Shown here in pieces: positions 6,599 to 64,000 of a DNA stretch of 64,000 nucleotides (positions are counted from its first letter, which is position 1; each line of letters begins with the position of its first letter). A model generated the notes under the pieces. It ran no database searches, was not told the DNA's origin, and worked only from the letters and a program-made list of their open reading frames with translations. A program made the translations under genes and the position numbers. This DNA is from Nitrospira sp. (GTDB lineage Bacteria; Nitrospirota; Nitrospiria; Nitrospirales; Nitrospiraceae): positions 16,845-80,844 of the forward strand of contig DATIFR010000134.1 in assembly GCA_035455145.1 (NCBI GenBank), in the 5' to 3' direction.

Positions 6599-8473
6599 AT
6601 GCTGAGGCTCAATGTACTTCAACGGTTCGAAAACCTAAAAACACAGGCGAAACTGCTGACGGTGTTCGCCCTGGTCGGCGTCATTATCGCGGCCATGGCC
6701 GGTGTGGGCATTGTCACGAACAGCCGCCTGGCTGCACAGGCCGAAACCGTGTATGTCGACTACACGGTGCCTCTGACCGAATTCAACACGCTCCTGTTCA
6801 ACGTCAACCGCTTTCACGAAGCCTTGATTGACGTGGCCAGAACGACGCGCGCTTCGGACTTCGAAATCGAAGTGAAAGACCTTGCGCCATACCGTGGTGA
6901 GGTCGAACGGTTAATTGCTAATTATGAAGCGACGACCTTGCGCATATCAAGCACGGGACGAGATGAAGCAAAAGATCTTGCCGAACTCAAGGATGCCATC
7001 AAAAAGTTCTTCGACCAGGGCGAAGCCGCGGTCAATACGATTAAGGATAGCTATGAAAGTAAGTCGTTGACGGCATCCCAGGCCCTCGCCATGCGGGATC
7101 TAGGCCAACTCGCCATTACGGTAAGTTTGTCTCCCGCCTATGAGAAGGTGACGGAGCGCCACGCAGAATCGATTAAGACGATGGCCGAAGTTGCGAAGGA
7201 TCTTTCCGAGCAGTCGAGATCGATGGCGGCAAACGCCACATTGATTCTGATCGGAGGCGGTATCGCCGCCGTGCTTTTAGGGTTGGCGCTCGGTTACTGG
7301 GTCGCGCACAAGCTGTCGCTGGGTATCGGACAAGTCGCCAGCGTCGCGCAGCAAGCGGCGGCCGGCAACTACCAAGCCCGAGCCAAGATTACGTCGAAAG
7401 ACGAGCTCGGTCAGATGGCCAGTTCGTTCAATACCATGTTAGACCGCATTACAGCCCTGGTAACGTCAGAGGGCGAACGCGACGAAATGCAAAAACGGTT
7501 GATGAACTTTCTCGTGCTGGTGTCTGACGTCGGTAAGGGAGACCTGACGAAGCGCGGAGAAGTGACTGCCGACATGTTCGGAAACCTGGCGGACGGGTTC
7601 AACCTCATGATCGCCAGGTTCGGGCAGTTGCTCAAGCAGGTCCGTGAGGCGGCCGAACGCGTCAACAAATCTGCCGGTACGCTGCGAGACAGCGCTGGTC
7701 AGATGGCTGGAACCGCCAAGCACCAAGCGGACGAGTCAGTTAAGACGTTGAGCGCGGTCGAACAGCTGGCCGCTCAAATGCGTAAGGTCGCCGAAACAGC
7801 CGGTGCTTCTTCGGAATCAGCCAAACAGGTGTTGCAAGCAACGGAGCGCGGTCGTGTCGCAGTGCAAGAAACCGTGCAGGACATGCAGAGCATCCGTTCT
7901 GCGGTGCAACGCATGTCGAAGCAGGTGAAGGCGCTCGGTGATCGATCACTGGAAATTTCTCAAATCGTATCGACCATTCGTGATATCGCGAACCAGACCA
8001 ACCTGCTCGCGCTGAACGCCGCCATCGAGGCGGCCGGCGCAGGTGAGGCAGGCGCCCGGTTCGCGGTCGTCGCCGACCAGGTCAGAAAGCTGGCCGAAAG
8101 CTCGACGCAGGCGACGCGTGAAATTGCCGAACTCGTGAAGGTGATTCAGACTGAGACGCAGGATGCCGTGGTCGCGATGGAACAGGAAACGCAGGCGGTG
8201 GAAGCGGGATCAGCTTCCGCGCTGCGTACCGGTGAAGTGTTCAACGAAATTTCAGGCATCGCGCAACGGTCAGCCGAATTGGCACAAACCATCGCCAGTT
8301 CCGCGGCCACGCAGACGGCTTCGACGGACCAGGTCGGTCGCTCGATTAAGGACTTCACGGGCGGTGCCGTGGCGACGCAGAAAGCCACTGATGCCGCACG
8401 CATGACCGTCGAAGACATGGCCAAGCTCGCCGATGGTCTGACGGCCTCGGTTGCACAGTTCAAACTGGCCTAA
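6599..8473 (+). CDS. Methyl-accepting chemotaxis protein (PilJ-like): TM, periplasmic four-helix sensor, TM, HAMP, signalling domain
   Basis: Two hydrophobic segments, HAMP ([11 protein letters not shown]), hairpin-tip motif [37 protein letters not shown]. Confidence 0.93.
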
Positions 8474-8481
8474 GGTCTGGT

Positions 8482-8512
8482 ACCCGGGGGTGTCGCAGCG
8501 ACGCCCCCGGGT
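8482..8512 (+). other. Strong intercistronic hairpin without U-tract
   Basis: ACCCGGGGG-TGTCG-cag-CGACG-CCCCCGGGT forms a 14-bp stem between the MCP stop and the cheA RBS. Confidence 0.65.
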
Positions 8513-8526
8513 GAGAAAGGATAGGG

Positions 8527-11500
8527 ATGAGCTCCGAACTGGACCGGCAGGGCCTTCTCGATATCTTTGTGACTGAAGCCGTGGAAGCCTTGGCCGTGCT
8601 TGCGGCAGCGGTCAATCCTGCCGGCGAAGCATTGCCGAGCGCACAAGAGCTCCAGAACCAATATGTGTGGGCGCACAAAGTGCGTGGTGCCGCCGGAATC
8701 TATGGGTTTTCCGGCCTATCGCTATTGGGAGAGCTGCTCGAAACCGCGCTGGAGAATTCCACGACGATCGATCCGGCGTTGTGGCCGAAGACAGTTGGTG
8801 CATTGCGCGGGATGGTCGAGGCGTTTCAAGCTCAACTCGAGATCGTCAGGCAAGGCGGTCAGGAAGATCCCACTGTCGGTGAACGGTGGAAAGCGGAGAT
8901 GGCGGCGCTTCTGCCAGCCTCGCCCGATACATTGTCTACGGAAGGAGCTACTTCCGACCAGCTTCCTCCAGAGTATTTGGTTCCCACCATTGACGCTGAA
9001 GTCCTGTCGTATTTTTCTCCGGAAGCCGACGAATATCTGCAAACGTTGGAATTGTTGACCAATCGACTCCGAGAGAATCCCGGCGATGCAGAAACGATTC
9101 AGTCCCTTTATCGGACCGCCCATACGTTGAAGGGTTCGGCGCATACGATCGGGTTCAAGGTGATCGGGGATATCGCTCATCCTGTCGAGGCCTGCATGAT
9201 CGCGGTGCGAGACGGGCAAATTCCTGTTTCCACTGCTCTCTTAACGACCATCGGCGAGGCTGTGAACGTAGTTCGGTTGCTGATGCGCCGGGACGATAGC
9301 AAACTCGATCAGCTTCAACAGGATGTGTCGGGGGTTACGCAGACACTGCATCAGATATGCAACGGGGAGCCGGTTGGCGCACCGCCCCCCTCGTCTCCGG
9401 CCATGGCACAAGACAACTCGGCTCCACAGGTCGCGACGGCCGTCTTGGAGCCGCCTGCCGATTCAACTGAGACGAGCGAGGGCTCAACGTCATCTTCTTC
9501 ACCTCTGCAACTGACTGATGAATACCTAATGCCGAAACTGGATCCGGAGGTACTGTCCTATTTCGCACCGGAAGCTCATGAGTATTTGGAGTCGTTGGAG
9601 GCCCAATTGCTCCGGCTGGAGAAAGAATCGGAGAATTCGGAACTCATCAATCAGCTCTTCCGCACCGCTCATACACTCAAGGGGTCGGCTTATACGGTCG
9701 GTTTTCAGGCAATTGGCGACATGACCCATTACGTGGAAGACTTCATGGGAGCAGTGCGCGACGGCCGTGTCAAAGTTCTGTCGGGCCACACTGATGTCTT
9801 GCTTCGGTCGGTAGACGTGGTGCGTCTGCTTATGCGTCGCGACCCGACCTTGATGGGAACATTACGGCAGCGGTTTGTCACCGCCATGCAGGGGCTCAAG
9901 CAACTGGAGCAGCCAGCGGCGGTCGAAACGGTGACCAAGGCGGCAGTCGCTCAGCCGGCCCCAGCGCCGGTCGTCAACGAAGCACCCGACCAGCCGGAAG
10001 CTGATCAGGCGAAAGCTGGCGATGCCAGGGCCAAAGATGCGAGCGGCGAGGATCGTGAAGTCATCCGTGTCAGCCGGGATCGATTGGAACGGCTGCTGAA
10101 TCTCGTCGGCGAATTGGTCATCGGCCGCGGACGGCTTGAACAGCGGTTGCAAGTATTGGAGCAGCTCTCGCAGCAGGTGTTGGCGTGCAAGGGCCGATTG
10201 ATGGATTCGGTGCGGTCTTTCGAGGAGAAACACACCTTCACGCTTCCTTCGTCCGGAGCCAACTCCGCGGATGGAGCGAAGTCTGGTTCGGTAGTCGGAG
10301 CGGCTGGGTTCACGGGATTAAGTGATTTCGGAAGCTTGGAGTTCGACAAGTACGACGACTTTAATATTCTTGCACGGCGAATCAGCGAAGTCACGGCCGA
10401 CATTTCCGAATCGATGACCCAGTTAAGCGGATCGATTCGCCGTTCGCATGAGGACATGAGCCAATTGCAGCAATTGACTCTCGGTATGCGGGACGAGATT
10501 GCCCGCGCACGAATGGTACCGGTCGGCACACCCTTTACGCGATTCCGGCGGGCGACACGAGAGATGGCCCGGACGACGGGCAAAGAGGTGACGCTGGTGA
10601 CGTCCGGTGAACATACGGAAGTCGATACCGGAGTCGTGGAGCGCTTGGTCGATCCCTTGGTACACCTGGTTCGCAATGCGGTCTATCATGGTATCGAGCC
10701 AGCTGCCTTGCGGGTTTCAAAAGGTAAGCCGGCCGCCGGGACGATCTATCTCCATGCCTCGCATCGTGGTAACGCCGTGCTGATCGAAGTTGAAGACGAC
10801 GGGGCCGGTCTGGACATCGACAAGATCAGGGCGAAGGCCGTCGAGCGCGGTCTTGTTAGAGCCGAGGTAGCGAAGAATCTTCCGGAAGCTGAAGTGATTA
10901 AGTTCATTTTCATGCCGGGTTTTTCGACTGCTGAGCAAATCGGTGATCAAGCAGGCCGGGGCGTCGGCATGGATGTCGTCAAACGCGTCATCGAAAGCAT
11001 GAACGGACACATCGACGTGGAATCCATCCGCGGCGTCGGGACCAAATTCACTCTCCACCTCCCGTTGACTCTGCTGATTGCGACGGCGTTAATGGTTCGG
11101 TCCGGCGGCGAGCGGTACGGGATTCCGCTGCCCAGCGTACGGGAAGTGACCATGCTCACAACCGGTTCATTCCAGCAAATGGGCGAACGGTCGATGATTC
11201 AGATCGGGGATGAAGCGATCGATGTCCTGCCGTTGCAACAACTGCTATCCAGGGGCAGCGCCAGCCGGGTCGAAATCGGGAACCCCGTCGTCATCGTGCG
11301 CACCGGCGTAGGACCGGTCGGCCTTGCGGTCGATGAGCTGCTCGGTCGCCAAGAAATCGTCATTAAGCCGATCGGATCGCTCAAGTCGCTGCAGCGTTCG
11401 TGCTTCGGCGGTGCCACCATCGATCCAGAAGGCCGGGTGGTGCTCGTTCTCGATCCTGCGCGATTGCTGTCGGGGAGCGAGAAAACCGCGGGGTCGTTGG

Positions 11501-11961
11501 ATGTCACGACCGAGGGAACCACATCGTCCGATAATGAGACGCCGATTGATGAAGCGCCTGTGCAACCTGCGGTTGAGCAAAAACTGCTGCTGATCGATGA
11601 TTCTTTGAGTATCAGAAAATTCGTCGGGCGCATGTTGGAAACGGCCGGCTATGAAGTCGACACGGCCGTGGATGGCGAGGAAGGGCTCCGCAAGGCTTCT
11701 GCGAAAAACTATCGCCTGATCTTGACGGATCTTGAAATGCCAAAACTCAATGGCTACGAAGTCATTCAAGCATTGCGCAGCCGTCCGCAGACGCAGCAGA
11801 CGCCGATCATTGTCATGACGACTCGGGCAGGAGATAAACACCGACAGATGGCGCTCAATATCGGAGCCAGTTCGTATATCGCCAAGCCTGTGGAAGAGCG
11901 GGCGCTCATTCAAGAGCTTGAACGATGGATTGGGCAGGAGTCTGCCGCACGGAAGGCCTGA
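8527..11961 (+). CDS. cheA: CheA/ChpA-like hybrid kinase: 3 Hpt domains, dimerisation, HATPase, CheW, REC
   Basis: Hpt motifs AHKVRGAA, AHTLKGSA (x2); LVDPLVHLVRNAVYHGIE, DDGAGLD, FMPGFST, GRGVGMDVV; C-terminal REC (IDDS, TDLEMP, KP). Confidence 0.95.
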   Translation: MSSELDRQGLLDIFVTEAVEALAVLAAAVNPAGEALPSAQELQNQYVWAHKVRGAAGIYGFSGLSLLGELLETALENSTTIDPALWPKTVGALRGMVEAFQAQLEIVRQGGQEDPTVGERWKAEMAALLPASPDTLSTEGATSDQLPPEYLVPTIDAEVLSYFSPEADEYLQTLELLTNRLRENPGDAETIQSLYRTAHTLKGSAHTIGFKVIGDIAHPVEACMIAVRDGQIPVSTALLTTIGEAVNVVRLLMRRDDSKLDQLQQDVSGVTQTLHQICNGEPVGAPPPSSPAMAQDNSAPQVATAVLEPPADSTETSEGSTSSSSPLQLTDEYLMPKLDPEVLSYFAPEAHEYLESLEAQLLRLEKESENSELINQLFRTAHTLKGSAYTVGFQAIGDMTHYVEDFMGAVRDGRVKVLSGHTDVLLRSVDVVRLLMRRDPTLMGTLRQRFVTAMQGLKQLEQPAAVETVTKAAVAQPAPAPVVNEAPDQPEADQAKAGDARAKDASGEDREVIRVSRDRLERLLNLVGELVIGRGRLEQRLQVLEQLSQQVLACKGRLMDSVRSFEEKHTFTLPSSGANSADGAKSGSVVGAAGFTGLSDFGSLEFDKYDDFNILARRISEVTADISESMTQLSGSIRRSHEDMSQLQQLTLGMRDEIARARMVPVGTPFTRFRRATREMARTTGKEVTLVTSGEHTEVDTGVVERLVDPLVHLVRNAVYHGIEPAALRVSKGKPAAGTIYLHASHRGNAVLIEVEDDGAGLDIDKIRAKAVERGLVRAEVAKNLPEAEVIKFIFMPGFSTAEQIGDQAGRGVGMDVVKRVIESMNGHIDVESIRGVGTKFTLHLPLTLLIATALMVRSGGERYGIPLPSVREVTMLTTGSFQQMGERSMIQIGDEAIDVLPLQQLLSRGSASRVEIGNPVVIVRTGVGPVGLAVDELLGRQEIVIKPIGSLKSLQRSCFGGATIDPEGRVVLVLDPARLLSGSEKTAGSLDVTTEGTTSSDNETPIDEAPVQPAVEQKLLLIDDSLSIRKFVGRMLETAGYEVDTAVDGEEGLRKASAKNYRLILTDLEMPKLNGYEVIQALRSRPQTQQTPIIVMTTRAGDKHRQMALNIGASSYIAKPVEERALIQELERWIGQESAARKA

Positions 11962-12014
11962 CGGCTGGACTCTCACTGAGTCGCAGGTAGGCTGAATACG
12001 AAACAGAATTCCCT

Positions 12015-12533
12015 ATGAGTTTGCGAGGACATCACAGGGCGACGACTGCCACCGTGCAGACAGCCAGTTTTCTGGTCGTGCGGTTCGGCAAGAACTACTG
12101 CGCGTTGCCGTCGCAGGGAGTGCGCGGTGTGCTCACCATGGAAGAGGCAGGGCGCGCTCAGACGGTCACCGCCGTGGGCGTGATCTACCAGGATGTCGAT
12201 CTTGCCGGGCGTTTCTCGACCGTTGTGGATCTGACTCGCCCGGACACGCGCACGATTCTTTATTCCAACGGTCAGTCCCACGGAGCCATTCGAGTCGAGG
12301 AAGTCATCGGCATGATTGATGTGGAACGGCATCAATGCAAGCCGCTGCCCCCGCATTTTCAACAGGACGAACGGACTTGGATCTCCGGAACGATCTTTTT
12401 TCGCGAGCAGTTGGCGCTAATTCTAAATCCTGAATGGGTATTGGGTGAACTTGGGGAAGAGGTGGCGGTCGGTGGGGATCGAGAGAAGTCTAAGGCGATC
12501 TCTCATGCGACTGGAATCGGTGGACAATGCTAA
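12015..12533 (+). CDS. Divergent CheW-like protein
   Basis: FLVVRFG..YCALP...VRGV, GAIRVEEVIG, LILNPEWV; directly after cheA. Confidence 0.7.
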   Translation: MSLRGHHRATTATVQTASFLVVRFGKNYCALPSQGVRGVLTMEEAGRAQTVTAVGVIYQDVDLAGRFSTVVDLTRPDTRTILYSNGQSHGAIRVEEVIGMIDVERHQCKPLPPHFQQDERTWISGTIFFREQLALILNPEWVLGELGEEVAVGGDREKSKAISHATGIGGQC

Positions 12534-12994
12534 GGGCTGCGCGTCAACAGGACCAGGCCGTCGCGGCAAAGAAATCTTGGAACGTCGTGGTATTTTCTGT
12601 CGGTGGCATGAAACTGGCCGCGAGAACCGAGGATGTCGGCGGGGTGGCAGCCTGGGTTGAACCGGTTTCAGTCCCGAGCCGCACCCCGTTCATCGGTGCG
12701 ATGCTCAAGAGGGAGAAAGACGTGATGCCGGTATACGATCTGGCGACTCGTCTTGAACGCGAACCAGAGGGCGACACATTGTTGTGTCTGGTCGCCCGCC
12801 ATATCGACGGTCCCATGGCCATATGCATTGACTCTGTGATCCCGACGCTCCATACGATTGAGATTAGTCAGATTGTGCCGAGCAAGCGCATGGATCTCGA
12901 AACGCTCGGTAGTTTCACCGAAGATGGGCGAGACATCGACATCCTCGCGCTCCAGAGGCTGGGGCGCAGACGACAAGATAGCATGCGGCCATAA
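12527..12994 (+). CDS. Divergent CheW-like protein
   Basis: VVVFSVGG, VPSRTPFIGAML..VMPVYDL; overlaps the previous CheW. Confidence 0.7.
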   Translation: MLRAARQQDQAVAAKKSWNVVVFSVGGMKLAARTEDVGGVAAWVEPVSVPSRTPFIGAMLKREKDVMPVYDLATRLEREPEGDTLLCLVARHIDGPMAICIDSVIPTLHTIEISQIVPSKRMDLETLGSFTEDGRDIDILALQRLGRRRQDSMRP

Positions 12995-13013
12995 GGTCCA
13001 AGCTGAAAGGAAT

Positions 13014-14336
13014 ATGGACATGCCGAAGGTGTTAGTGGCTGACGATAGCATTGCCGTACGAAAGGTCGCGGAACGGCTGCTGACTGAGGCCGGATTGGGC
13101 GTTACGTTAGCGGCGAACGGTGAAGAGGCATTGGCCAGTCTAGCCAAGGAAGTGCCCGATTTGATCGTGTCAGACGTAATTATGCCGGATAAGAGCGGAT
13201 ACGAAGTCTGTGCATTTGTGCGTGCTCAGAGCGCGTTGGCAAACACACCGGTACTGCTCATCTCAGGGATCGTCAATGACGAAGTTACCAAGCAGGCCGA
13301 GTCCTGCCATGCGGACGGAGTGCTGAAGAAGCCCTTTCAGGGTACGTCGCTTAAGGATCGCGTCCTCGAACTGCTCGCCAAGAAACACGGTCAAAAAACC
13401 GAACCGCCAAAACAGGCGGCGCAGCCGGCTCCTCCGTCGGGGGCGGAGCGAGGTTCGCGTGTCCCGGACGAGCAGATAGCGGCCTCTCAACAAACCCTCG
13501 CCAAGCTGAAGCAGGTTGAGGAGGAACTTCACAAAGAACGGCAGCAATCGGCACAGTTGACTCAGCGCATCGCTCAACTTGAAGGCCAGGTTGGCCGTGT
13601 GAAGGAACTTGACGCCATCGTGGCAAGCGAGAGGGAGCAATCGGCGCAGGCCAAGAAGGCTGCTGAGGAACTGGCGCCGATCGCCCAGCGAGCAAAAGAG
13701 CTTGAGGCGTTGCTGAAGCAGGAGCGGGAACAGGCCGCGCAAGTCAAGAAGCAGGCGGACGATCTCCGAGGTCAAGTGACACGCCTGCATGAACTCGAAG
13801 AATTGCTGAAGCAGGAGCGGGAACAGGTTGCGCAGCTCAAGAAGCAGACGGACGATTTCCGAGGTCAAGTTGCACGCCTGCAGGAATTTGAAGCGGCATT
13901 GCAACAAGAACGGGTTAAAACCGCGCAACTCCAGCAACGCGTCACTGATATGCAGAAGTCCGTGACGCGCGTGCAAGAACTGGAAGCGGCCTTGTATGCC
14001 GAGCGTCAGGCTGCCACGCAGCTCGTTCAGCAAATGACGGCGATGGAAAAAGCCGTGAGCCGCTCGCAAGAGCTGGCACAACAGTTTGCGCGAGAGCAAC
14101 AGCGAGTGGAAGAACTGACTCGTCGGTTAGCCGTAAGCGAAGATGGAAGCGCAAAAGCAAAAGAGGTTGAAAAACTGTTGGAAACGGAGCGGGAGCGGAA
14201 CGCCGTGTTGGCGCATCGAGTGTCGGAAACCGAAGTGGCGGCGCAGCAGGCGACCAAACGATTCGAAGAGATGGCCAAGAAACTCGGAGAAATTGCAGGT
14301 TTGGCTTCCCAGTTAGGGAATGGAGCAAAGCGGTAA
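13014..14336 (+). CDS. Receiver domain fused to a long coiled coil (AglZ/FrzS-like architecture)
   Basis: REC (VADDS, SDVIMPD, KKPF) with intact phosphoacceptor Asp; Q/E/K/A-rich repeat tail. Start at ATG 13014 after GAAAGG. Confidence 0.85.
   Translation: MDMPKVLVADDSIAVRKVAERLLTEAGLGVTLAANGEEALASLAKEVPDLIVSDVIMPDKSGYEVCAFVRAQSALANTPVLLISGIVNDEVTKQAESCHADGVLKKPFQGTSLKDRVLELLAKKHGQKTEPPKQAAQPAPPSGAERGSRVPDEQIAASQQTLAKLKQVEEELHKERQQSAQLTQRIAQLEGQVGRVKELDAIVASEREQSAQAKKAAEELAPIAQRAKELEALLKQEREQAAQVKKQADDLRGQVTRLHELEELLKQEREQVAQLKKQTDDFRGQVARLQEFEAALQQERVKTAQLQQRVTDMQKSVTRVQELEAALYAERQAATQLVQQMTAMEKAVSRSQELAQQFAREQQRVEELTRRLAVSEDGSAKAKEVEKLLETERERNAVLAHRVSETEVAAQQATKRFEEMAKKLGEIAGLASQLGNGAKR
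13512..14255 (+). repeat. Intragenic tandem repeat, 8 x 93 bp (31 aa)
   Basis: Units start at 13512, 13605, 13698, 13791, 13884, 13977, 14070 and 14163 (ELExLLxxERExxAQ...). Units 3 and 4 are highly similar at DNA level (ttgctgaagcaggagcgggaacagg at 13710 and 13803). Confidence 0.9.
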
Positions 14337-57740: not shown

Positions 57741-58110
57741 GGGAGGGTGGCCTGATCGGTCCCTGTGCTCGCGGAACGCGACACACGGGAACAAACAGAT
57801 TGATAAATTATTGGCGGTGTTCGTTCGACGCGCGCACGATGGGACCGATTCAGGCCACTTTGAAGCCCGTCTCCGCATGAGGGGGAGAGATAACGAGCAA
57901 GCTTGGAAGGACCATTTTATAGTGGATCAATTCCGCTGCGGGTGCTTGGTGAAAACCGCGTCCCGGCGCGGGTGGGCTGGGTGGGTGAGAAAGCCGCCCG
58001 AGTCGGCGCCACCCGCTAAGAGAGAGTCAACCCTTGCCCAGGGGGAGGAGCGGAACGAGCAAGCTTGGAGGGATCATCAAAAGTTCGACGCGCGCACGTT
58101 TGAGGCCAAT
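57741..58110 (+). repeat. Stacked repeat cluster: X plus tail, Z plus tail, X 3' fragment
   Basis: X stem GTGGCCTGA-TCGGTCCC / GGGACCGA-T-TCAGGCCAC; tails at 57893 and 58055. Confidence 0.88.
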
Positions 58111-58346
58111 CGGGCCACCCCACGCCATGGAGGAGATGCTCTAGTGAACGAAGTTGGATTCCCGGTGAGCGCTATCCGTGAAGAAAGTCACAACACCCGT
58201 ATCCGATAACTGGCGACATTGAAATGCACGTATTTCCTCACTCCCCCAAGCTATCTCTCTTGCGCGATCTCTCTCGTGCTCTTACAATTCGCTCCGTGAT
58301 ACTAAAAAATCTTCTTCAGCCCGGATCGGTGTTAGGTTTCGGGGCA

Positions 58347-59645
58347 GTGAAACTTCGCATCAGCGTATGGGTGCTGTGCCTGCTCGTGGTGATCGGAGGA
58401 TGCCAGATTCTGCCAGGCCACTGGCGGCCAGGGTGGAATCAACGATTGCCCGCCGGCGCGCCCGTGCCTGACACAGCCGGCTCGTGGAAATTGACCGAAC
58501 TCGAACAGAAGGATGGTAGATTTGTCGCCCTCGCCATCTCAGGCGGCGGGAGTCGAGCGGCCAACTTCGGTGCCGCCGTCATGCTGGAACTCCAACAGCG
58601 GGGTCTGTTGGAACAAGTCGATGTGATTTCAGGCGTGTCCGGTGGGACACTTCCGGCCGTGTACTATGGACTCGGGGACAAGGCCGGTGCGTTTACGGAG
58701 CCGGCGGTGCGCCAGGCGTTGGGCTACGATTTTCAGAGCAGTTGGATTCGCCGGTGGTTTCTCCCTCAGAACATCTTTCGCTATTGGCTCTCCGACTTCA
58801 CCCGTTCGGATATTATGGTGCAGGTCTTCAACAACCGTCTTTACCACAAGGCTACCTTTGCAGAGCTTCGGTTGCATCCCAAAATTCTATTGAATTCCAC
58901 CGTCCATAACGACCATACCCGCTTCACCTTCACGGACGAACGTTTCGCAGCGCTCCATTCTGTGCTCGCCAGGTATCACGTGGCCAACGCGGTGAATGCG
59001 TCGTCCGCCTTTCCCGGTGCTTTCCAGGACGTGACCCTGCAAGGGTACGTGGAACCGCCGCTGTACCTTCATCTCTACGACGGCGGTCCCATCGATAATC
59101 TTGGCGTCCAGGCCATCCTCGAATACGTGAATCGGAACATCTTGGGCACCTCGCTCGATCGTCTGTTTCCGAACGGCTGTCTGATTATCGTCGTGGATGC
59201 CACGCCTGCGAGTGAGCATCCTGAACTTAGCACGCATGAGTCTAGTCGCAAATTCATCGACTATTTCGTTGACGACAATGCCCTGGACGCGATGGATGCG
59301 ATGTTGATGGAATCTCGCAGAACCCTCTTGGCGAGGATGGGCATTTCGGTCGAGAAGCAGGACCAGGATATGCGGGGTCGGCTCCCGGTGAATGATCCCG
59401 GTCAATGCGGCTGCGAAGTACGCCATGTCGCACTTCGCCATCTGATGTATGCGGGGAACTCAGGTGATACGGGATTGGCCGAGCGCGTGACGCAGATCAA
59501 AACGAAGTTTTGGGTTTCCGAGGAGGAACAGAACGATCTCTTTCAATCCGCCAAGATCATCATGAAGCTGCTAGACGATCAAAAACTCCTGTCGGACCCC
59601 TCATTTAAGGTTCCATGCACAGTTGTCCCACCGTCCAAGCAGTGA
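58347..59645 (+). CDS. Patatin-like phospholipase, probable lipoprotein
   Basis: Lipobox-like VIGGC; SGGGSRAA, GVSGG (catalytic Ser), YDGG. Confidence 0.88.
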   Translation: MKLRISVWVLCLLVVIGGCQILPGHWRPGWNQRLPAGAPVPDTAGSWKLTELEQKDGRFVALAISGGGSRAANFGAAVMLELQQRGLLEQVDVISGVSGGTLPAVYYGLGDKAGAFTEPAVRQALGYDFQSSWIRRWFLPQNIFRYWLSDFTRSDIMVQVFNNRLYHKATFAELRLHPKILLNSTVHNDHTRFTFTDERFAALHSVLARYHVANAVNASSAFPGAFQDVTLQGYVEPPLYLHLYDGGPIDNLGVQAILEYVNRNILGTSLDRLFPNGCLIIVVDATPASEHPELSTHESSRKFIDYFVDDNALDAMDAMLMESRRTLLARMGISVEKQDQDMRGRLPVNDPGQCGCEVRHVALRHLMYAGNSGDTGLAERVTQIKTKFWVSEEEQNDLFQSAKIIMKLLDDQKLLSDPSFKVPCTVVPPSKQ

Positions 59646-59708: not shown

Positions 59709-60113
59709 TCACTCGAGGAAATCTACTCCATTATGATCGGTCAGGGGAAAGTTTTGCTCGCAGATTTGTCTCAGTTGGCTCGCATCGACCGGCTTCAAGA
59801 TGTATTGCCTGGCTCCCAGGCTTAGCGCCTCTTCACGTATCACGCGATCTTGCTCAGCGGTCATCATCACGATCGGCACATGCGGATGCTGAACCCGTAG
59901 CTCCCTGAGCACTTCAATGCCGTCCATGATGGGCATTTGCAGGTCCAGCAGCACACCTCTGATCGGAGACTGCTTCGCCTCAAGGGCCATGAGCGCCAAC
60001 CCTGTCCTTCCGTCGTGAGCCACGATGACGGTATAGCCCATGGCCTCAAGACGATCTTTTAAGGCTTCACAGATCATGGGATTGTCATCGATGATCAGAA
60101 GCCGTCGTCCCAT
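59709..60113 (-). CDS. Single-domain response regulator
   Basis: IIDDN, LLDLQMP, MMTA, KP. Confidence 0.88.
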   Translation of the reverse strand: MGRRLLIIDDNPMICEALKDRLEAMGYTVIVAHDGRTGLALMALEAKQSPIRGVLLDLQMPIMDGIEVLRELRVQHPHVPIVMMTAEQDRVIREEALSLGARQYILKPVDASQLRQICEQNFPLTDHNGVDFLE

Positions 60114-60369
60114 ATGACGCTGTCTCCAGAACCGGAGCCGGATTCGCCGCCTCCAGGGTATATGTGAAACCCTCTCGCCAAAGAATGATCTCCCCGGTGC
60201 GACTCAGCACGTCCATGGCAAGAAAGAGCTGACTCCAACTGAGGTCCGGCATCTGTTGCACAATTTCCTCAACCGTCAATTTTCCTGATGCACGAAGGAG
60301 ATCCATGATCGCGGATTCCCGTTGTGCATACTCGACGTGGTGATTCCCGGGGCGGGCCTCGCTCGGCAT
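60085..60369 (-). CDS. Small hypothetical protein, winged-helix-like
   Basis: AAAGGAGG RBS; MPDLSWSQLFLAMDVLSRTGEI parallels the 47685 protein. Confidence 0.7.
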   Translation of the reverse strand: MPSEARPGNHHVEYAQRESAIMDLLRASGKLTVEEIVQQMPDLSWSQLFLAMDVLSRTGEIILWREGFTYTLEAANPAPVLETASYGTTASDHR

Positions 60370-60416
60370 GGGATCCTCCTTTCTTCTCTCAGACGCTCGG
60401 ATCGGAGGTGAAACGG

Positions 60417-60665
60417 TTATCGATCAACGTGCGCGCTCACGGTCTGCGTCCTGTAGCTGCGGCGATTCGCCAGGATGACGGGATCGATGATCCCGCCACA
60501 TTGCACGCAACTCCATGCGTGGGCTGTTTGTGTCCCTGTAATCCTGCCCCATTCTCCATACCTGACCGGAATGAGGAACCCCTGACAGCGCGGGCAGTGA
60601 GCAGGCCGCACAGCCGGTTCACTCTCCGTCGGTGGCATTGAGGCCGGCTGTTCGTTCAGCACCAT
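60417..60665 (-). CDS. Small zinc-ribbon protein
   Basis: CPRCQG...WSCVQCG..DPVILANR. Confidence 0.75.
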   Translation of the reverse strand: MVLNEQPASMPPTESEPAVRPAHCPRCQGFLIPVRYGEWGRITGTQTAHAWSCVQCGGIIDPVILANRRSYRTQTVSAHVDR

Positions 60666-60668
60666 CGT

Positions 60669-61097
60669 TCACCTGGTTGGTTCCGGGGCCGAGATCATCC
60701 TGTCGCCCCGCGCGAGCGGAACCAGGACGACGAGCGTGCCCCGCATGACGGGATGCAACTCGCAGTGATAGCCGTAGCGACCAGGCGGCAGGGGGGCGAT
60801 GAGGAAACTGCTATCCGGCGGGACCGCGATGGATTGAAAAGCGCAGTGGTCATCCGTCAGACATCCATCGTGGCGGACGCTATGAGGAGATCCCGTTGCA
60901 TTGTTCCACCGAACAGGAGTGCCTGCCGACACGACCGCAACCTGAGGGTGGTAGTAGGGTGACGTCGTTTCGAACGCGATCTCGACGGGATCGGGTGAGG
61001 CAAAGGCAGCTACTGCGCTGCCGGTCAAAAGCATGCACGAACAGAGCAGAACGAAGACAACCGGGAATCGATTGTTGGATGGATTGGATTGGCTCAT
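60669..61097 (-). CDS. Exported cupredoxin (plastocyanin/azurin-like, type 1 Cu)
   Basis: Signal peptide; PHSV and YHCELHPVMRG supply the His/Cys/His/Met ligands. Confidence 0.88.
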   Translation of the reverse strand: MSQSNPSNNRFPVVFVLLCSCMLLTGSAVAAFASPDPVEIAFETTSPYYHPQVAVVSAGTPVRWNNATGSPHSVRHDGCLTDDHCAFQSIAVPPDSSFLIAPLPPGRYGYHCELHPVMRGTLVVLVPLARGDRMISAPEPTR

Positions 61098-61195
61098 GGT
61101 GCCGCTCCTTTCCGCGAGAGGGCCGTCTCGATCTATCGCGCCGACAGCATACAGCCAGAGGGAATAAGGACTCGATATGGAGATGGGTGGAATCG

Positions 61196-61212
61196 CATAA
61201 AGAATGTATAAA
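61196..61212 (-). promoter_or_regulatory. KdpE-type binding site upstream of the cupredoxin gene
   Basis: Minus strand reads TTTATA-CATTC-TTTATG, matching the TTTATA-N5-TTTACA layout of the E. coli KdpE site; candidate -10 TATGCT at 61151-61146. Confidence 0.6.
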
Positions 61213-61278
61213 GATCAGCCGCGGGGGGGCACACGAATTGGAGAGAGAAGGGATGGGGAATTGGATGCGGAACGGCGC

Positions 61279-61989
61279 CTAGGCAGCCGATGGGGCATTG
61301 CCTTCCAGACTGAAGCGATACCCGACACCGGAATCGGTCAGGATGAACCTTGGGCGAGTGGGATCCTTTTCGAGTTTTTTCCTCAGTTGCCCGATGAACA
61401 CCCGCAGATACTGGGCCTGGTCCACATAGGCCTGTCCCCAAACCTCCTGCAGCAGCATGCGATGCGTGAGCACTTTTCCGGCATGTTCGATCATGTATTT
61501 GAGCAGGTCATACTCAGTCGGCGTCAGTTTGACCGGCTTCTGATCCAGCGTGACCTCGCGCCGGTCAAAATTCACGCAGAGGCCGCCCGCGATGAACACC
61601 GGTTGCGAACTATGAGCACCGGCGGCTCTCCGCAACAAGGAGCGGATGCGGGCCAGCAATTCATCCATGCCGAAGGGTTTTGTCATGTAATCGTCCGCTC
61701 CGAGTTCGAGGGCTTCGACTTTGCGGGCCTCCTCGCCCATCGCCGAGAGCACGATGATCGGCACCGTGGAGGATTCGCGAATCCGGCGCACCACTTCCAC
61801 TCCGTCTATCCCCGGCATGATAAGATCCAGGACAACCACGTCGGGACGCCGGTTGAGAAAGGAACGGAGCGCGCCTTCCCCGGTCTCCACCGTCTCGACT
61901 GCATAGCCGCTTTGCTCGAGATTCACCTGAAGCGACCGCCGGATCTGGGGTTCATCGTCCACGACGAGAATGCGCGCGCCCTGTGTCAC
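61279..61989 (-). CDS. OmpR-family response regulator, KdpE-like
   Basis: DDEPQIRR, LGADDYMTKPFG, LTPTEY, YLRVFIGQLRKKLEKDPTRPRFI. Confidence 0.92.
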   Translation of the reverse strand: MTQGARILVVDDEPQIRRSLQVNLEQSGYAVETVETGEGALRSFLNRRPDVVVLDLIMPGIDGVEVVRRIRESSTVPIIVLSAMGEEARKVEALELGADDYMTKPFGMDELLARIRSLLRRAAGAHSSQPVFIAGGLCVNFDRREVTLDQKPVKLTPTEYDLLKYMIEHAGKVLTHRMLLQEVWGQAYVDQAQYLRVFIGQLRKKLEKDPTRPRFILTDSGVGYRFSLEGNAPSAA

Positions 61990-63413
61990 GACGCCCCCTG
62001 CACAGTGGCGGGTTCGGATGCACTCCGGTCACTGGCGAGTAACGAGGCGGCCAGCGGAATCTGAAACAGGATCGTGGTCTCGTGACCGGGAACCGACTCA
62101 GCGAAGATGGAACCGCCATGGGCCTCGACGATGCCCTTGCAGATCGCCAACCCGAGACCGGTGCCGGGGCTGCCGGACGACCCGCCAGATTGCACGCGAT
62201 AGAATCGCTCGAAGATCCGGTCCAGCTCGCCGGGAGGCACTCCTTCGCCGGTATTGGAGATGCGTACTTCGAGGAAGTTTTCTGCGAGCGCCGCGGTGAG
62301 CCGGATCGGGGATTCTGGTGGCGAAAACTTGATGGCGTTGTCGAGAAGATTTACGAGCACCTGTTGGATTTGCACCCCGTCGACAGAGACCGGCGGAAGA
62401 TCCGGATCCACCAGCACGTAAAGAGGCCGGCCGGCCAGCAACGGCTCGACCCGTCGGATCGCCCCTTCCACCAGTTCATCGACGATCTGCCACTCCAGGT
62501 GAGGCGTCAGCGTCCCGGCCTCGAGGCGTGACATGTCCAGCAGATTGCCGACCAGACCGTTCAAATAATCCAGTTCCCGTTCAATGCCTGTAAGAAATTC
62601 GTGGCGTACGGCTGGCGGCAGCGACGCGCCGTTGCGGCGAAGGCTGAACAGCATCGTTTTGATCGTGGTCAACGGCGTGCGGAGTTCATGAGAGACGGAA
62701 GACAACAACGAGGACTTGATCGCGTCACGCTGATGCAGAGCCTGGACGGTCATCGCCTGGCTCTGTTTCAACGCCTGCTCCGCCCGCAGAAACCGCCAGG
62801 TGCCCAACGTCGCCACCGCCACCACCATGAGCACCACCACAACTTCCCAGCCAATGAGCGTCTGGACGTTCTGTTCCGAATGTTGGGTCAAGAGCGTCAC
62901 GGCGTCATTCGCAATGGTCAGGAGTGCAGCATGGTCCCTGAGCAGTGCATCCCTCGCAACGCCGTTCTGGGTACCGGTCTGTGCAGTCTGGAGGAACGCA
63001 TCGGCGTTGGTAAACAATGCCTCCATGAGGGTCCACTGTTCGAGCAGTTTCACTCGAATCTCGTCGGTTGGAGCGGCGGGAACCACCGCAGTTCCACTAC
63101 GACCCACCTGGACAACAGTCGTGCCCCCGTGGATCAACGCCTGCACCCGCTCTTTCAGCGCGGCGCGAGTGACCTTGTACTGCGCATCCACACCCTGGGA
63201 GGCCAGCAGCACCTCTTTTATATGACGCTCCAGCAACATGCGTTGTCGGCCCGCCAGGTCAATGACGAGGGCATCGGACTCGCGGCTGTGAATGATGGTC
63301 AGGGTGAGTGGAACGATGGCGAGTGCAGTGATGATCAGGAGGCCGATGATGCCCACGACGGTCCAGTTGACATCGTGCGACTTCACAGCAGGTGGAGACG
63401 CGGCGGCAGCCAT
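61986..63413 (-). CDS. Sensor histidine kinase: NarX/PilJ-like periplasmic domain plus a KdpD-like kinase core
   Basis: TM-IDLAGRQRML (P-box-like)-TM; SVSHELRTPL, QVLVNLLDNAIKFSP, GTGLGLAICKGIVEAHGG. Confidence 0.88.
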   Translation of the reverse strand: MAAAASPPAVKSHDVNWTVVGIIGLLIITALAIVPLTLTIIHSRESDALVIDLAGRQRMLLERHIKEVLLASQGVDAQYKVTRAALKERVQALIHGGTTVVQVGRSGTAVVPAAPTDEIRVKLLEQWTLMEALFTNADAFLQTAQTGTQNGVARDALLRDHAALLTIANDAVTLLTQHSEQNVQTLIGWEVVVVLMVVAVATLGTWRFLRAEQALKQSQAMTVQALHQRDAIKSSLLSSVSHELRTPLTTIKTMLFSLRRNGASLPPAVRHEFLTGIERELDYLNGLVGNLLDMSRLEAGTLTPHLEWQIVDELVEGAIRRVEPLLAGRPLYVLVDPDLPPVSVDGVQIQQVLVNLLDNAIKFSPPESPIRLTAALAENFLEVRISNTGEGVPPGELDRIFERFYRVQSGGSSGSPGTGLGLAICKGIVEAHGGSIFAESVPGHETTILFQIPLAASLLASDRSASEPATVQGAS

Positions 63414-63542
63414 AGCGACCTCCAGTCGTCCCCATCATATCAATGAGACGATGGGAAACTCCAGGAGGGAGAATAAAAGGCTGGCGGCAATTGCTCCTGT
63501 AAGAACGGTGAGGGAAAAGAGGGAGAGGATTCGCTCGAACGT

Positions 63543-64000
63543 CTAGCGGCCCCCATGTCCGCCACCGCCACGACCACCGCCACCGCGACCGCCTCCACCG
63601 GAATGACCTCCTCCACGCCCGCCAAAATGTTGGGGACTCGTGGACGGGCTTTGGCGTGGTACCGAGAAGGGCGCGCGAAGCACAGGAGGATTCGGTTGGG
63701 CGACATGGGGTGGATGGACCTGTTGCAGTGTGGGTGGCAGAGGGCGTGAGAACTGTTGCGGCGGCGCCGGCGTCCGTAAGGCATTGGCACCGGTTCCGGC
63801 ATTGGCCGATCCCGGCAACAGAGTCTGTGGAGGTGCTGGTGCCGGCGTCCGTAATGCATTGGCACTCGTCGCGGCATTTGCCGATCCCGGGAGCAGAGTC
63901 TGCGGTGGCGGTGCAGTGACGCGCCCAGAGGCTGGCGGCGAGACCAGCAAAGAAGAATGCGGCGATGCCTGCACGGAAACTCCCGGCGATGAGGGTGGCA
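63543..64000 (-). CDS. C-terminal end of a Pro/Gly-rich protein, 5' part beyond the window
   Basis: Frame stays open to base 64000; 2 x 25-aa repeat and a GGR/RGG-rich tail. Confidence 0.55.
   Translation of the reverse strand, partial: PPSSPGVSVQASPHSSLLVSPPASGRVTAPPPQTLLPGSANAATSANALRTPAPAPPQTLLPGSANAGTGANALRTPAPPQQFSRPLPPTLQQVHPPHVAQPNPPVLRAPFSVPRQSPSTSPQHFGGRGGGHSGGGGRGGGGRGGGGHGGR

Follow-up and report, generated by a model that had tools for sequence, protein, structure and literature searches.

The 64,000-nucleotide stretch of Nitrospira contig DATIFR010000134.1 analyzed here (at its full length, the window) encodes a two-component system that joins a periplasmic PilJ-type sensor domain to a histidine kinase transmitter likely of KdpD lineage and to a response regulator assigned to the KdpE lineage, and that stands directly upstream of a cupredoxin operon preceded by a conserved KdpE-type direct repeat. 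We give an even chance to the full explanation of these findings, namely that the genes constitute a Nitrospirales-specific two-component system in which known modules have been newly combined. Judged by the comparative data, the regulator is likely to act at the repeat; nitrate or nitrite, argued by analogy with characterized sensors, is a plausible signal that falls slightly short of being probable. A sequence-only reading of the same DNA had proposed a rewired system that targets the cupredoxin operon, and the comparative evidence strongly supports this wiring. In the list of open reading frames (ORFs), the genes of the kinase, the regulator, and the downstream operon are all located on the minus strand, and the locus is organized as follows:

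63413..61986, minus strand: sensor histidine kinase, 475 amino acids (aa), from the ORF and Pfam
61989..61279, minus strand: OmpR-family regulator, 236 aa, with a 4-nt overlap between its start and the stop of the kinase gene
61278..61098, minus strand: spacer of 181 nt between the regulator and cupredoxin genes
61097..60669, minus strand: cupredoxin, 142 aa (Pfam Cupredoxin_1)
60665..60417, minus strand: small zinc-ribbon protein, 82 aa (CPRC...CVQC)
60369..60085, minus strand: probable winged-helix (winged helix-turn-helix, wHTH) protein, 94 aa (sub-threshold Pfam matches only)
60113..59709, minus strand: stand-alone receiver, 134 aa, the last gene of the operon (Pfam Response_reg)
58224..59645, plus strand: convergent patatin gene, which closes the unit

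The four genes from the cupredoxin to the receiver are closely packed, and the spacer upstream of them holds the predicted operator and promoter. The sequence-only reading had described a KdpE box at this place, 57-73 nt before an assumed transcription start, together with a -10 hexamer TATGCT, and both elements were recovered there:

61212..61196, minus strand: the box TTTATAcattcTTTATG, located by sequence search
61214..61196, minus strand: predicted operator TC-TTTATA-cat-TC-TTTATG, a direct repeat of 19 bp
61176..61163, minus strand: element ATCGAG-TCCTTATT, comprising a weak -35-like region and a third TCYTTAT copy
61151..61146, minus strand: predicted -10 hexamer TATGCT, which would place the start near 61139

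The half-sites of the box are 6 bp long, start 11 bp apart, and are each preceded by TC; with one mismatch allowed, the box is the sole match in the window, compared with 0.06 matches expected from shuffled sequences. Orthologous loci were gathered from the listed kinase homologs, from a genome scan, and from a metagenome scan combined with a cupredoxin alignment, and those with at least 150 nt of sequence upstream of the cupredoxin gene (76 loci) were searched with the pattern YTTAYV-N5-YTTAYV. The box proved to be conserved in 72 of these 76 promoters, and the four promoters that do not contain it belong to cupredoxin loci without a regulator gene upstream. Outside these promoters, ~3 distinct matches to the pattern occur in 872 kb, both strands included; a search for further boxes of the regulon in the window and the flanks returned only ~3 scattered matches. 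The consensus of the 57 non-identical promoters, aTC-TTTAYR-c.t-TC-YTTATR, contains conserved TC flanks; as the search pattern did not include them, they provide independent evidence for an 11-bp direct repeat. A chance origin of the box was considered and is ruled out by its conservation.

In 52 of the same 57 unique promoters, a TAnnnT hexamer follows at 61 (+/-1) nt from the beginning of the repeat, whereas the box is separated from the start codon by anything between 73 and 238 nt; thus, the repeat is positioned relative to the promoter and not relative to the coding sequence. If transcription starts 7 nt after TATGCT, the box occupies approximately -73 to -57, and a KdpE-type direct repeat is therefore predicted to be conserved at about -65 before the cupredoxin operon. 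The half-sites of Escherichia coli KdpE, TTTATA and TTTACA, are likewise separated by a 5-bp spacer and are located at -72..-50 (PMC3264566). Between the repeat and the -10 hexamer, ATCG is found at offset 36 (+/-1) in 46 promoters and TCYTTR at offset 42 (+/-1) in 38 of the 57. From this geometry we infer that the regulator would activate the operon and not repress it. The third half-site copy in the window, TCCTTAT (61163-61170, minus strand), lies 33 nt, or three helical turns, after half-site 2 and within the spacer between the -35 and -10 elements; it may serve for binding at low affinity or for repression. A weak terminator-like stem is present at 61236-61219. Searches of RNA runs with the window returned four runs, whose stray contigs, one of them covering the zinc-ribbon gene and one the promoter, gave no transcript ends; searches of RNA runs with two orthologous loci (L085 and L170) returned no runs.

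The regulator had been called KdpE-like, down to its recognition helix YLRVFIGQLRKK, and both parts of this description hold: the helix is present, and KdpE is the best match in NCBIfam as well as in the PDB.

61410..61372, minus strand: recognition helix YLRVFIGQLRKKL, regulator residues 194-206

The protein is composed of Response_reg and Trans_reg_C domains (Pfam), with Asp55 as the phospho-acceptor. Its best NCBIfam model is KdpE with 231.8 bits, below the equivalog cut-off of 325, followed by RpaB (218.4) and MtrA (211.7), and its best match in the PDB is E. coli KdpE (4kny, 1.4e-60), followed by RegX3 (9.6e-47). The regulator shares 45.5% identity with E. coli KdpE, gaps excluded, and the KdpE residues D52, K101, Y191, R193, R200, and T215 are all kept in the alignment. 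The last three of them, which correspond to R196, R203, and T218 of the regulator, are required for DNA binding by KdpE, and R193 is kept only among KdpE orthologs (PMC3264566). The sequence of the recognition helix, QYLRVF[VI]GQLRKK, shows practically no variation among 70 orthologs. On the basis of these comparisons the regulator is assigned to the KdpE lineage. The sequence-only reading had seen no kdpFABC genes nearby; indeed, KdpA and KdpB are absent among all window ORFs of at least 450 aa, six long orthologous contigs contain no kdp gene up to 8 kb from the cluster, and N. marina has been reported to be without kdp genes (PMC7231039).

The gene order kinase, regulator, cupredoxin, (zinc-ribbon protein), wHTH protein, receiver is syntenic across the Nitrospirales wherever sequence is available; the module is present on more than 70 Nitrospirales contigs, and its synteny spans kinase identities from 99% down to ~44%. 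In these loci the cupredoxin gene hardly ever occurs apart from the kinase-regulator pair. The kinase has at least 120 homologs (57-99% identity) among the matches listed, mostly unnamed metagenome proteins, and the named ones among these matches come mostly from Nitrospira; since, moreover, the DNA runs containing the stretch are soil metagenomes, the host organism is a soil Nitrospira. An exact-protein look-up of the kinase found no record. The genome scan contributed only seven Nitrospirales loci, as its patterns came from the catalytic core of the kinase and retrieved mostly DUF4118 kinases from Chloroflexi. In one locus (L005, 3532-4335), which has the kinase, regulator, and box, a membrane ORF of 56 aa and an IS3-like transposase take the place of the cupredoxin.

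The kinase contains the Pfam domains PilJ (residues 41-152; 32.2 bits, cut-off 26.6), HisKA, and HATPase_c, and no KdpD N-terminal, Usp, DUF4118, GAF, or HAMP domain was detected in it by Pfam. The profile search thus bears out the proposed relationship of the sensor domain to the PilJ/NarX type, and likewise the earlier statement that the KdpD N-terminal and Usp domains are missing. The sensor is laid out as follows:

Kinase, complete protein: transmembrane helix TM1 at ~17-42, periplasmic PilJ four-helix bundle at ~43-186, second transmembrane helix TM2 at ~187-207, linker of ~35 residues, HisKA, HATPase_c
63263..63228, minus strand: motif IDLAGRQRMLLE, resembling the N-box and the P-box, residues 51-62, in helix 1, ~10 residues after TM1

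Gly55 and Arg58 of this motif form a GxxR core, in which Arg58 precedes Met59, in agreement with the arginine noted from the sequence. GxxR has been described as a nitrate-binding core (PMC8199190), and in McpN the residues G58, A59, R61, and M62 of both monomers touch one nitrate on the dimer axis (PMC6381276). The motif IDLAGRQRMLLE is almost invariant in 109 homologs, and the family-wide sensor motif, SDAxVIDxAG[RQ]QRMLLER[HY], is nearly invariant. The N-box of McpN is defined by the pattern [IVL][ND]xAGxQRML[ST]Q (PMC6381276); of its 12 positions, the motif matches 10, among them the Gly, Arg, and Met that touch nitrate. In the comparison with the NarX/NarQ P-box consensus A-I-N-x-A-G-S-L-R-M-Q-S-Y-R-L (PMC8199190), VIDLAGRQRMLLERH agrees at 6 of the 14 specified positions and retains only the GxxR(M) core together with I, A, and R. 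The sequence-only reading, which had likened the motif to the P-box, was right in kind, but the N-box of McpN is the better match. Thus, the sensor is classified as PilJ/NarX/McpN type with a motif closer to the McpN N-box than to the NarX P-box, and IDLAGRQRMLLE is a predicted oxyanion-binding site beside TM1; its sequence does not decide between nitrate and nitrite as the ligand.

A structural model of the sensor was obtained with AlphaFold (AF2) from a 20-sequence alignment (mean predicted local distance difference test score, pLDDT, 79.7). It contains four helices, at residues 13-72, 79-95, 117-145, and 151-214, two of which are long and continuous with the transmembrane helices and two shorter, and a beta-hairpin (residues 97-111) between helices 2 and 3 at the distal tip. 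In a Foldseek comparison of the model with the PDB, the best match was the ligand-binding domain of McpN (6gcv; probability 1.00, target-normalized template modeling score 0.80, 20% identity), with a root-mean-square deviation of 3.8 over 133 columns and E = 3.7e-3. The next neighbors were sensor fragments of NarQ, and LytS (5xsj) and QseE (9m08) were found further down. The sensor is linked to NarX, NarQ, and McpN by Pfam and by fold comparison only.

The transmitter carries the phospho-acceptor His242 in the sequence SHELRTPL (HisKA, PF00512), and its H-E-x-x-T motif suggests a bifunctional kinase/phosphatase. Kinases with a PilJ sensor and a HisKA domain are already present in databases, and the JGI pipeline puts this kinase family in the KdpD ortholog group. 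The nearest relatives outside the Nitrospirales are from Chloroflexi (40-50% identity) and carry DUF4118 with or without GAF in all six kinases of an outgroup sample, which was drawn by two peptide patterns in the genome scan; this arrangement is the membrane and linker architecture of KdpD. The translation of a Streptomyces locus from the same genome-scan list (L080) reads as a full-length KdpD. Based on these relationships, the transmitter is likely of KdpD lineage. The NCBIfam model of KdpD covers the kinase only at profile positions 654-882, with 149 bits versus a cut-off of 1123; the kinase itself is not a KdpD, and the term "KdpD-type" holds for the lineage of its transmitter only. A caution is therefore due on annotation, since pipelines call these PilJ kinases "KdpD". 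The kinase is not a member of the NarX/NarQ family either, because it has no HAMP, S-helix, or GAF-like region, its dimerization domain is HisKA and not HisKA_3, and its partner is of the OmpR type.

Among the genes of the target operon, the cupredoxin, zinc-ribbon, and receiver genes named in the sequence-only reading are present, and the wHTH gene remains probable, with matches below threshold only. The cupredoxin carries a Sec-type signal peptide, as judged by eye, and scores 33.1 bits against Cupredoxin_1 (cut-off 27). Its copper ligands are His72, Cys112, His115, and Met118, which form an amicyanin-like C-x2-H-x2-M loop; in the alignment with amicyanin 1id2 (1.1e-7), PHSV...YHCELHPVM is aligned to the ligand motifs, and the ligands are invariant in seven cupredoxin orthologs. 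The scores against the NCBIfam models of amicyanin and plastocyanin are far under the cut-offs. The protein is a blue copper protein of its own kind and presumably serves as a periplasmic electron carrier. Beside the first copper ligand, residues 75-87 contain an invariant RHDGC-x5-C motif (Cys79/Cys85), which is missing from amicyanins and plastocyanins and may constitute a disulfide or else an additional metal or redox site.

The zinc-ribbon protein has the motif CPRCxGF...WxCxxCGxxIDPVI and belongs to no Pfam family; its ORF is conserved in many orthologous loci and is missing from some lineages. The 94-aa protein is conserved in ~58 loci and has sub-threshold Pfam matches to Penicillinase_R, HTH_DeoR, HTH_9, Rpc34, and GntR, mostly wHTH families; a profile of this protein was uninformative against the PDB, and we regard it as a probable wHTH protein. 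In two metagenome contigs (L155 and L161), the zinc-ribbon and 94-aa proteins are fused in one 190-aa ORF, which argues that both proteins act together. The stop of the wHTH gene and the start of the receiver gene overlap by 29 nt in all lineages examined, and the 94-aa gene is translationally coupled to the receiver gene. The lone receiver (Response_reg, 96.5 bits) has intact DD, Asp57, Thr, and Lys residues and is found in most orthologous loci. Together, the zinc-ribbon, wHTH, and receiver proteins look like a second, split regulatory module, and the same kinase might phosphorylate the lone receiver as its second substrate, in which case the receiver would serve as a phosphate sink and provide negative feedback.

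In ~3 lineages, the receiver gene is followed on the same strand, after 28-46 nt, by the hydrogenase-maturation genes hypF-hypC-hypD(-hypE) (L085 12562-17381, L086, L146, L170 8791-11407, and L171; L089 12200-12730 contains a hypF fragment only), which in these lineages may be co-transcribed with the box-controlled operon. In the lineage of the window, the convergent patatin gene stands at this position. A general linkage between the cluster and hyp genes was rejected, as it holds in ~3 lineages only. N. moscoviensis is an H2 oxidizer and is capable of nitrate reduction driven by H2 or formate; a nitrate input would therefore make sense in the hyp-containing lineages, which we mention as a lead only.

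The kinase and regulator genes are preceded by a promoter of a different kind:

63442..63434, minus strand: extended -10 element TGATATGAT of the kinase-regulator operon, 20 nt before the ATG

Among 35 loci, a TTGNTATGAT-like extended -10 element is conserved in the non-identical upstream regions of the kinase gene, and TGATATGAT is a probable constitutive promoter of the pair. Autoregulation was considered as well; a KdpE-like repeat upstream of the kinase gene is absent in these 35 loci, which, together with the conserved extended -10 element, suggests constitutive expression of the kinase-regulator operon without autoregulation.

Building on the domains observed, the synteny throughout the family, the conserved repeat with its fixed position, and the retained DNA-contact residues of KdpE, we propose the following mechanism. 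In the kinase dimer, the N-box would bind a single small oxyanion (nitrate and/or nitrite) on the dimer axis, where it would lie between both Arg58 side chains, as modeled on McpN, NarX, and NarQ. Because there is no HAMP domain, the signal would pass straight from TM2 through a short coiled coil to the HisKA/HATPase transmitter of KdpD ancestry. The transmitter would phosphorylate Asp55 of the KdpE-lineage regulator, a pairing supported by the overlap of the two genes and by their universal synteny. The phosphorylated regulator would then bind as a tandem dimer to TC-TTTAYR-N3-TC-YTTATR, centered ~65 bp upstream of a weak sigma-70-type promoter, and activate the operon that encodes the cupredoxin, presumed to carry electrons, the zinc-ribbon/wHTH proteins, and the lone receiver. 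The latter would probably act as a feedback phosphate sink, or else as part of a second-tier split regulator, and the kinase and regulator genes themselves would be expressed from their own box-less, probably constitutive promoter.

A number of observations weigh against this scheme. The last two positions of IDLAGRQRMLLE are L-E, compared with [ST]-Q in the N-box, and the strict N-box pattern is thus incompletely met. Helical bundles usually give marginal Foldseek E-values, and this is the case here as well (3.7e-3); neither phmmer with the sensor nor a 20-sequence profile reached NarX, NarQ, or McpN in the PDB. An exhaustive search found the PilJ module flanked by transmembrane helices and carrying AGRQRML[NL][QE]R[HY] in 699 clusters at 50% identity, joined to histidine kinases with PAS or GAF domains and to methyl-accepting chemotaxis proteins (MCPs), at times in 2-3 tandem copies; because the module is so widespread across kinases and chemoreceptors, the AGRQRML motif may be a fold signature and not a ligand signature. 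We know of no ligand for any listed member of this set, and to our knowledge McpN, NarX, and NarQ are the only relatives with known ligands. As for the output, the NCBIfam scores of the kinase core (PnpS 167, WalK 165, PhoR 150, and KdpD 149 bits) are not KdpD-specific, and a PDB search of the core placed HK853 above KdpD of the S. aureus type; of the KdpD/KdpE-type output first proposed, the KdpE lineage of the regulator stands and the KdpD lineage of the transmitter is likely, but these scores do not point to KdpD specifically. The PhoP and PmrA boxes, too, are similar to 11-bp repeats of the TTTA type, and in one locus (L091, 3500-5424) the cupredoxin operon and its box stand alone, with neither a kinase nor a regulator gene in the 4 kb upstream.

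On the input side, the same wiring might respond to another signal, such as sulfite, cyanate, bicarbonate, or chlorite, or to periplasmic redox state or copper via the cupredoxin as a co-sensor, an alternative that we consider rather unlikely. It would agree with the incomplete N-box and with the occurrence of the AGRQRML module in hundreds of unrelated receptors without a known ligand. Whereas nitrate is the only ligand of McpN among these ions, NarX and NarQ also accept nitrite and sulfite, and no nitrate binding was seen for PilJ and NIT domains that had been predicted to sense it (PMC6381276). In the co-sensor version, the cupredoxin would be an accessory partner of the sensor, as in TorT-TorS, XylFII-LytS, and QseG-QseE; the structural neighbors LytS (5xsj) and QseE (9m08) use such accessory proteins, and the cupredoxin, with its unusual invariant Cys pair, is almost always encoded beside the kinase-regulator pair, but we obtained no evidence for a contact between the sensor and the cupredoxin. 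Moreover, the three relatives with solved ligand complexes bind nitrate at this motif by contacts that are invariant here, and the top two structural neighbors of the sensor are nitrate sensors. On the output side, it is improbable that the repeat is bound by another factor, for example by the zinc-ribbon/wHTH proteins of the operon in an autoregulatory loop, or that it is an AT-rich UP-like element. The operon does encode a probable DNA-binding protein, the third TCCTTAT copy in the promoter spacer suggests a more complex operator, and the box of L091 lacks an adjacent kinase-regulator pair. However, an 11-bp tandem direct repeat is the signature of OmpR/PhoB-family dimers, its half-sites equal the published KdpE sequence TTTA(T/C)A, and the regulator retains the specificity residue R193; the box is also kept where the zinc-ribbon and/or wHTH genes are missing (L087, L119-L125), and it is missing from the four cupredoxin loci without a regulator gene. 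Finally, the pair could be a degenerate KdpD/KdpE paralog whose signal is still K+ or osmotic stress and whose target is a kdpFABC operon elsewhere in the genome, the nearby box being incidental. The KdpD label given to the homologs by JGI pipelines and the closeness of the regulator to KdpE would fit this explanation, yet every input module of KdpD is missing and replaced by PilJ, kdp genes are absent from the window, from the 8 kb around the orthologous loci, and reportedly from N. marina, and in 72 loci the box and the cupredoxin operon have been conserved together; we find it hardly credible.

Several features of the window lie outside the system described. A Pro/Ala-rich ORF with a Gly/Arg-rich C-terminus (GGRGGGH...) adjoins the kinase gene upstream (63543-63974, minus strand); it is without a family assignment, contains a 75-nt tandem duplication (63763-63837 and 63838-63912, 83% identity), and its true start may precede the first of the listed start codons. 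Ahead of the patatin gene, a gap of 440 nt (57823-58118, plus strand) contains two pairs of direct repeats, one of 36 nt at 57823/58083 (78% identity) and one of 24 nt at 57892/58054 (92%), with no Rfam match; an Rfam search of 55-64 kb of the window found nothing. Elsewhere in the window, a chemotaxis-type cluster (6599-14336, plus strand) encodes a chemoreceptor (4HB_MCP), a CheA of 1144 aa that contains two Hpt domains, CheW, and a C-terminal receiver, and a receiver protein of 492 aa.

Our literature search found no description of this Nitrospirales system. Each of its parts is of a known kind, and domain shuffling is common among two-component systems; what we have not seen described is the combination, conserved in the Nitrospirales, of an N-box sensor with a KdpD/KdpE core, a retained KdpE-type operator before a new regulon, and a candidate sensor of nitrogen oxyanions in a nitrite oxidizer. 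We know of no account of how nitrite oxidizers perceive nitrite, their substrate, and nitrate, their product. It is possible, although on balance doubtful, that the system is the first dedicated nitrate/nitrite sensor of nitrite-oxidizing Nitrospira, in which an N-box receptor was grafted onto a KdpD/KdpE core, the ancestral DNA specificity for a TTTAYA direct repeat at about -65 was kept, and the K+ pump regulon was swapped for a blue-copper carrier and a second-tier split regulator. If so, the cell could tune its periplasmic electron-transfer chain by the level of substrate or product, or switch between nitrite oxidation and nitrate reduction driven by H2 or formate. The hypothesis is compact, as all it involves is a sensor domain of ~145 aa whose key residue is one arginine, a regulator, an operator of 19 bp, and a target of four genes. 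The system would also provide a natural example of two-component rewiring, with input and regulon exchanged and the KdpE regulator-operator code retained, and would be useful for seeing how DNA specificity outlasts the turnover of a regulon.

Among characterized systems, the sensor is most similar to that of McpN (PA2788) from Pseudomonas aeruginosa (6GCV), which is likewise a periplasmic four-helix bundle flanked by transmembrane helices, is the best structural match of the model, and shares the N-box at 10 of 12 positions. However, the output of McpN is an MCP signaling domain, whereas here it is a histidine kinase without HAMP; the McpN N-box ends in [ST]-Q and the present motif in L-E, the overall identity is ~20%, and the beta-hairpin insertion 97-111 of the Nitrospira model is unlike McpN. 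NarX and NarQ also have a periplasmic PilJ-type sensor with a membrane-proximal motif around a GxxR core, and their logic is alike, in that a kinase sensing a nitrogen oxyanion, as presumed here for the ligand, controls respiratory components. In contrast to the Nitrospira kinase, which has HisKA (PF00512) and none of these modules, NarX and NarQ carry HAMP, S-helix, a GAF-like module, and HisKA_3; their partners are of the NarL/FixJ type, whereas the Nitrospira partner is a winged-helix regulator of the OmpR/KdpE type. NarL recognizes heptamer operators, compared with the direct repeat here, and the host of the present system is an aerobic nitrite oxidizer.

The similarity to E. coli KdpE concerns the half-site type (TTTAYR with a 5-bp spacer) and the position of the box, both at the level of sequence. 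The spacer of the Nitrospira box is C/T-rich (cattc) with TC before the half-sites, whereas that of the E. coli KdpE site is AT-rich, and KdpE controls kdpFABC, while the predicted target of the Nitrospira regulator is the cupredoxin operon; the sensing modules of KdpD are all missing from the Nitrospira kinase. The target protein shares with amicyanin and plastocyanin a secreted single-domain cupredoxin fold with a type-1 site of the His...Cys-x2-His-x2-Met form, and its best PDB matches are amicyanins. Unlike amicyanins, the Nitrospira cupredoxin has the additional RHDGC-x5-C motif and a C-terminal extension, and it is encoded outside any methylamine dehydrogenase context, beside the two-component system that is proposed to control it.

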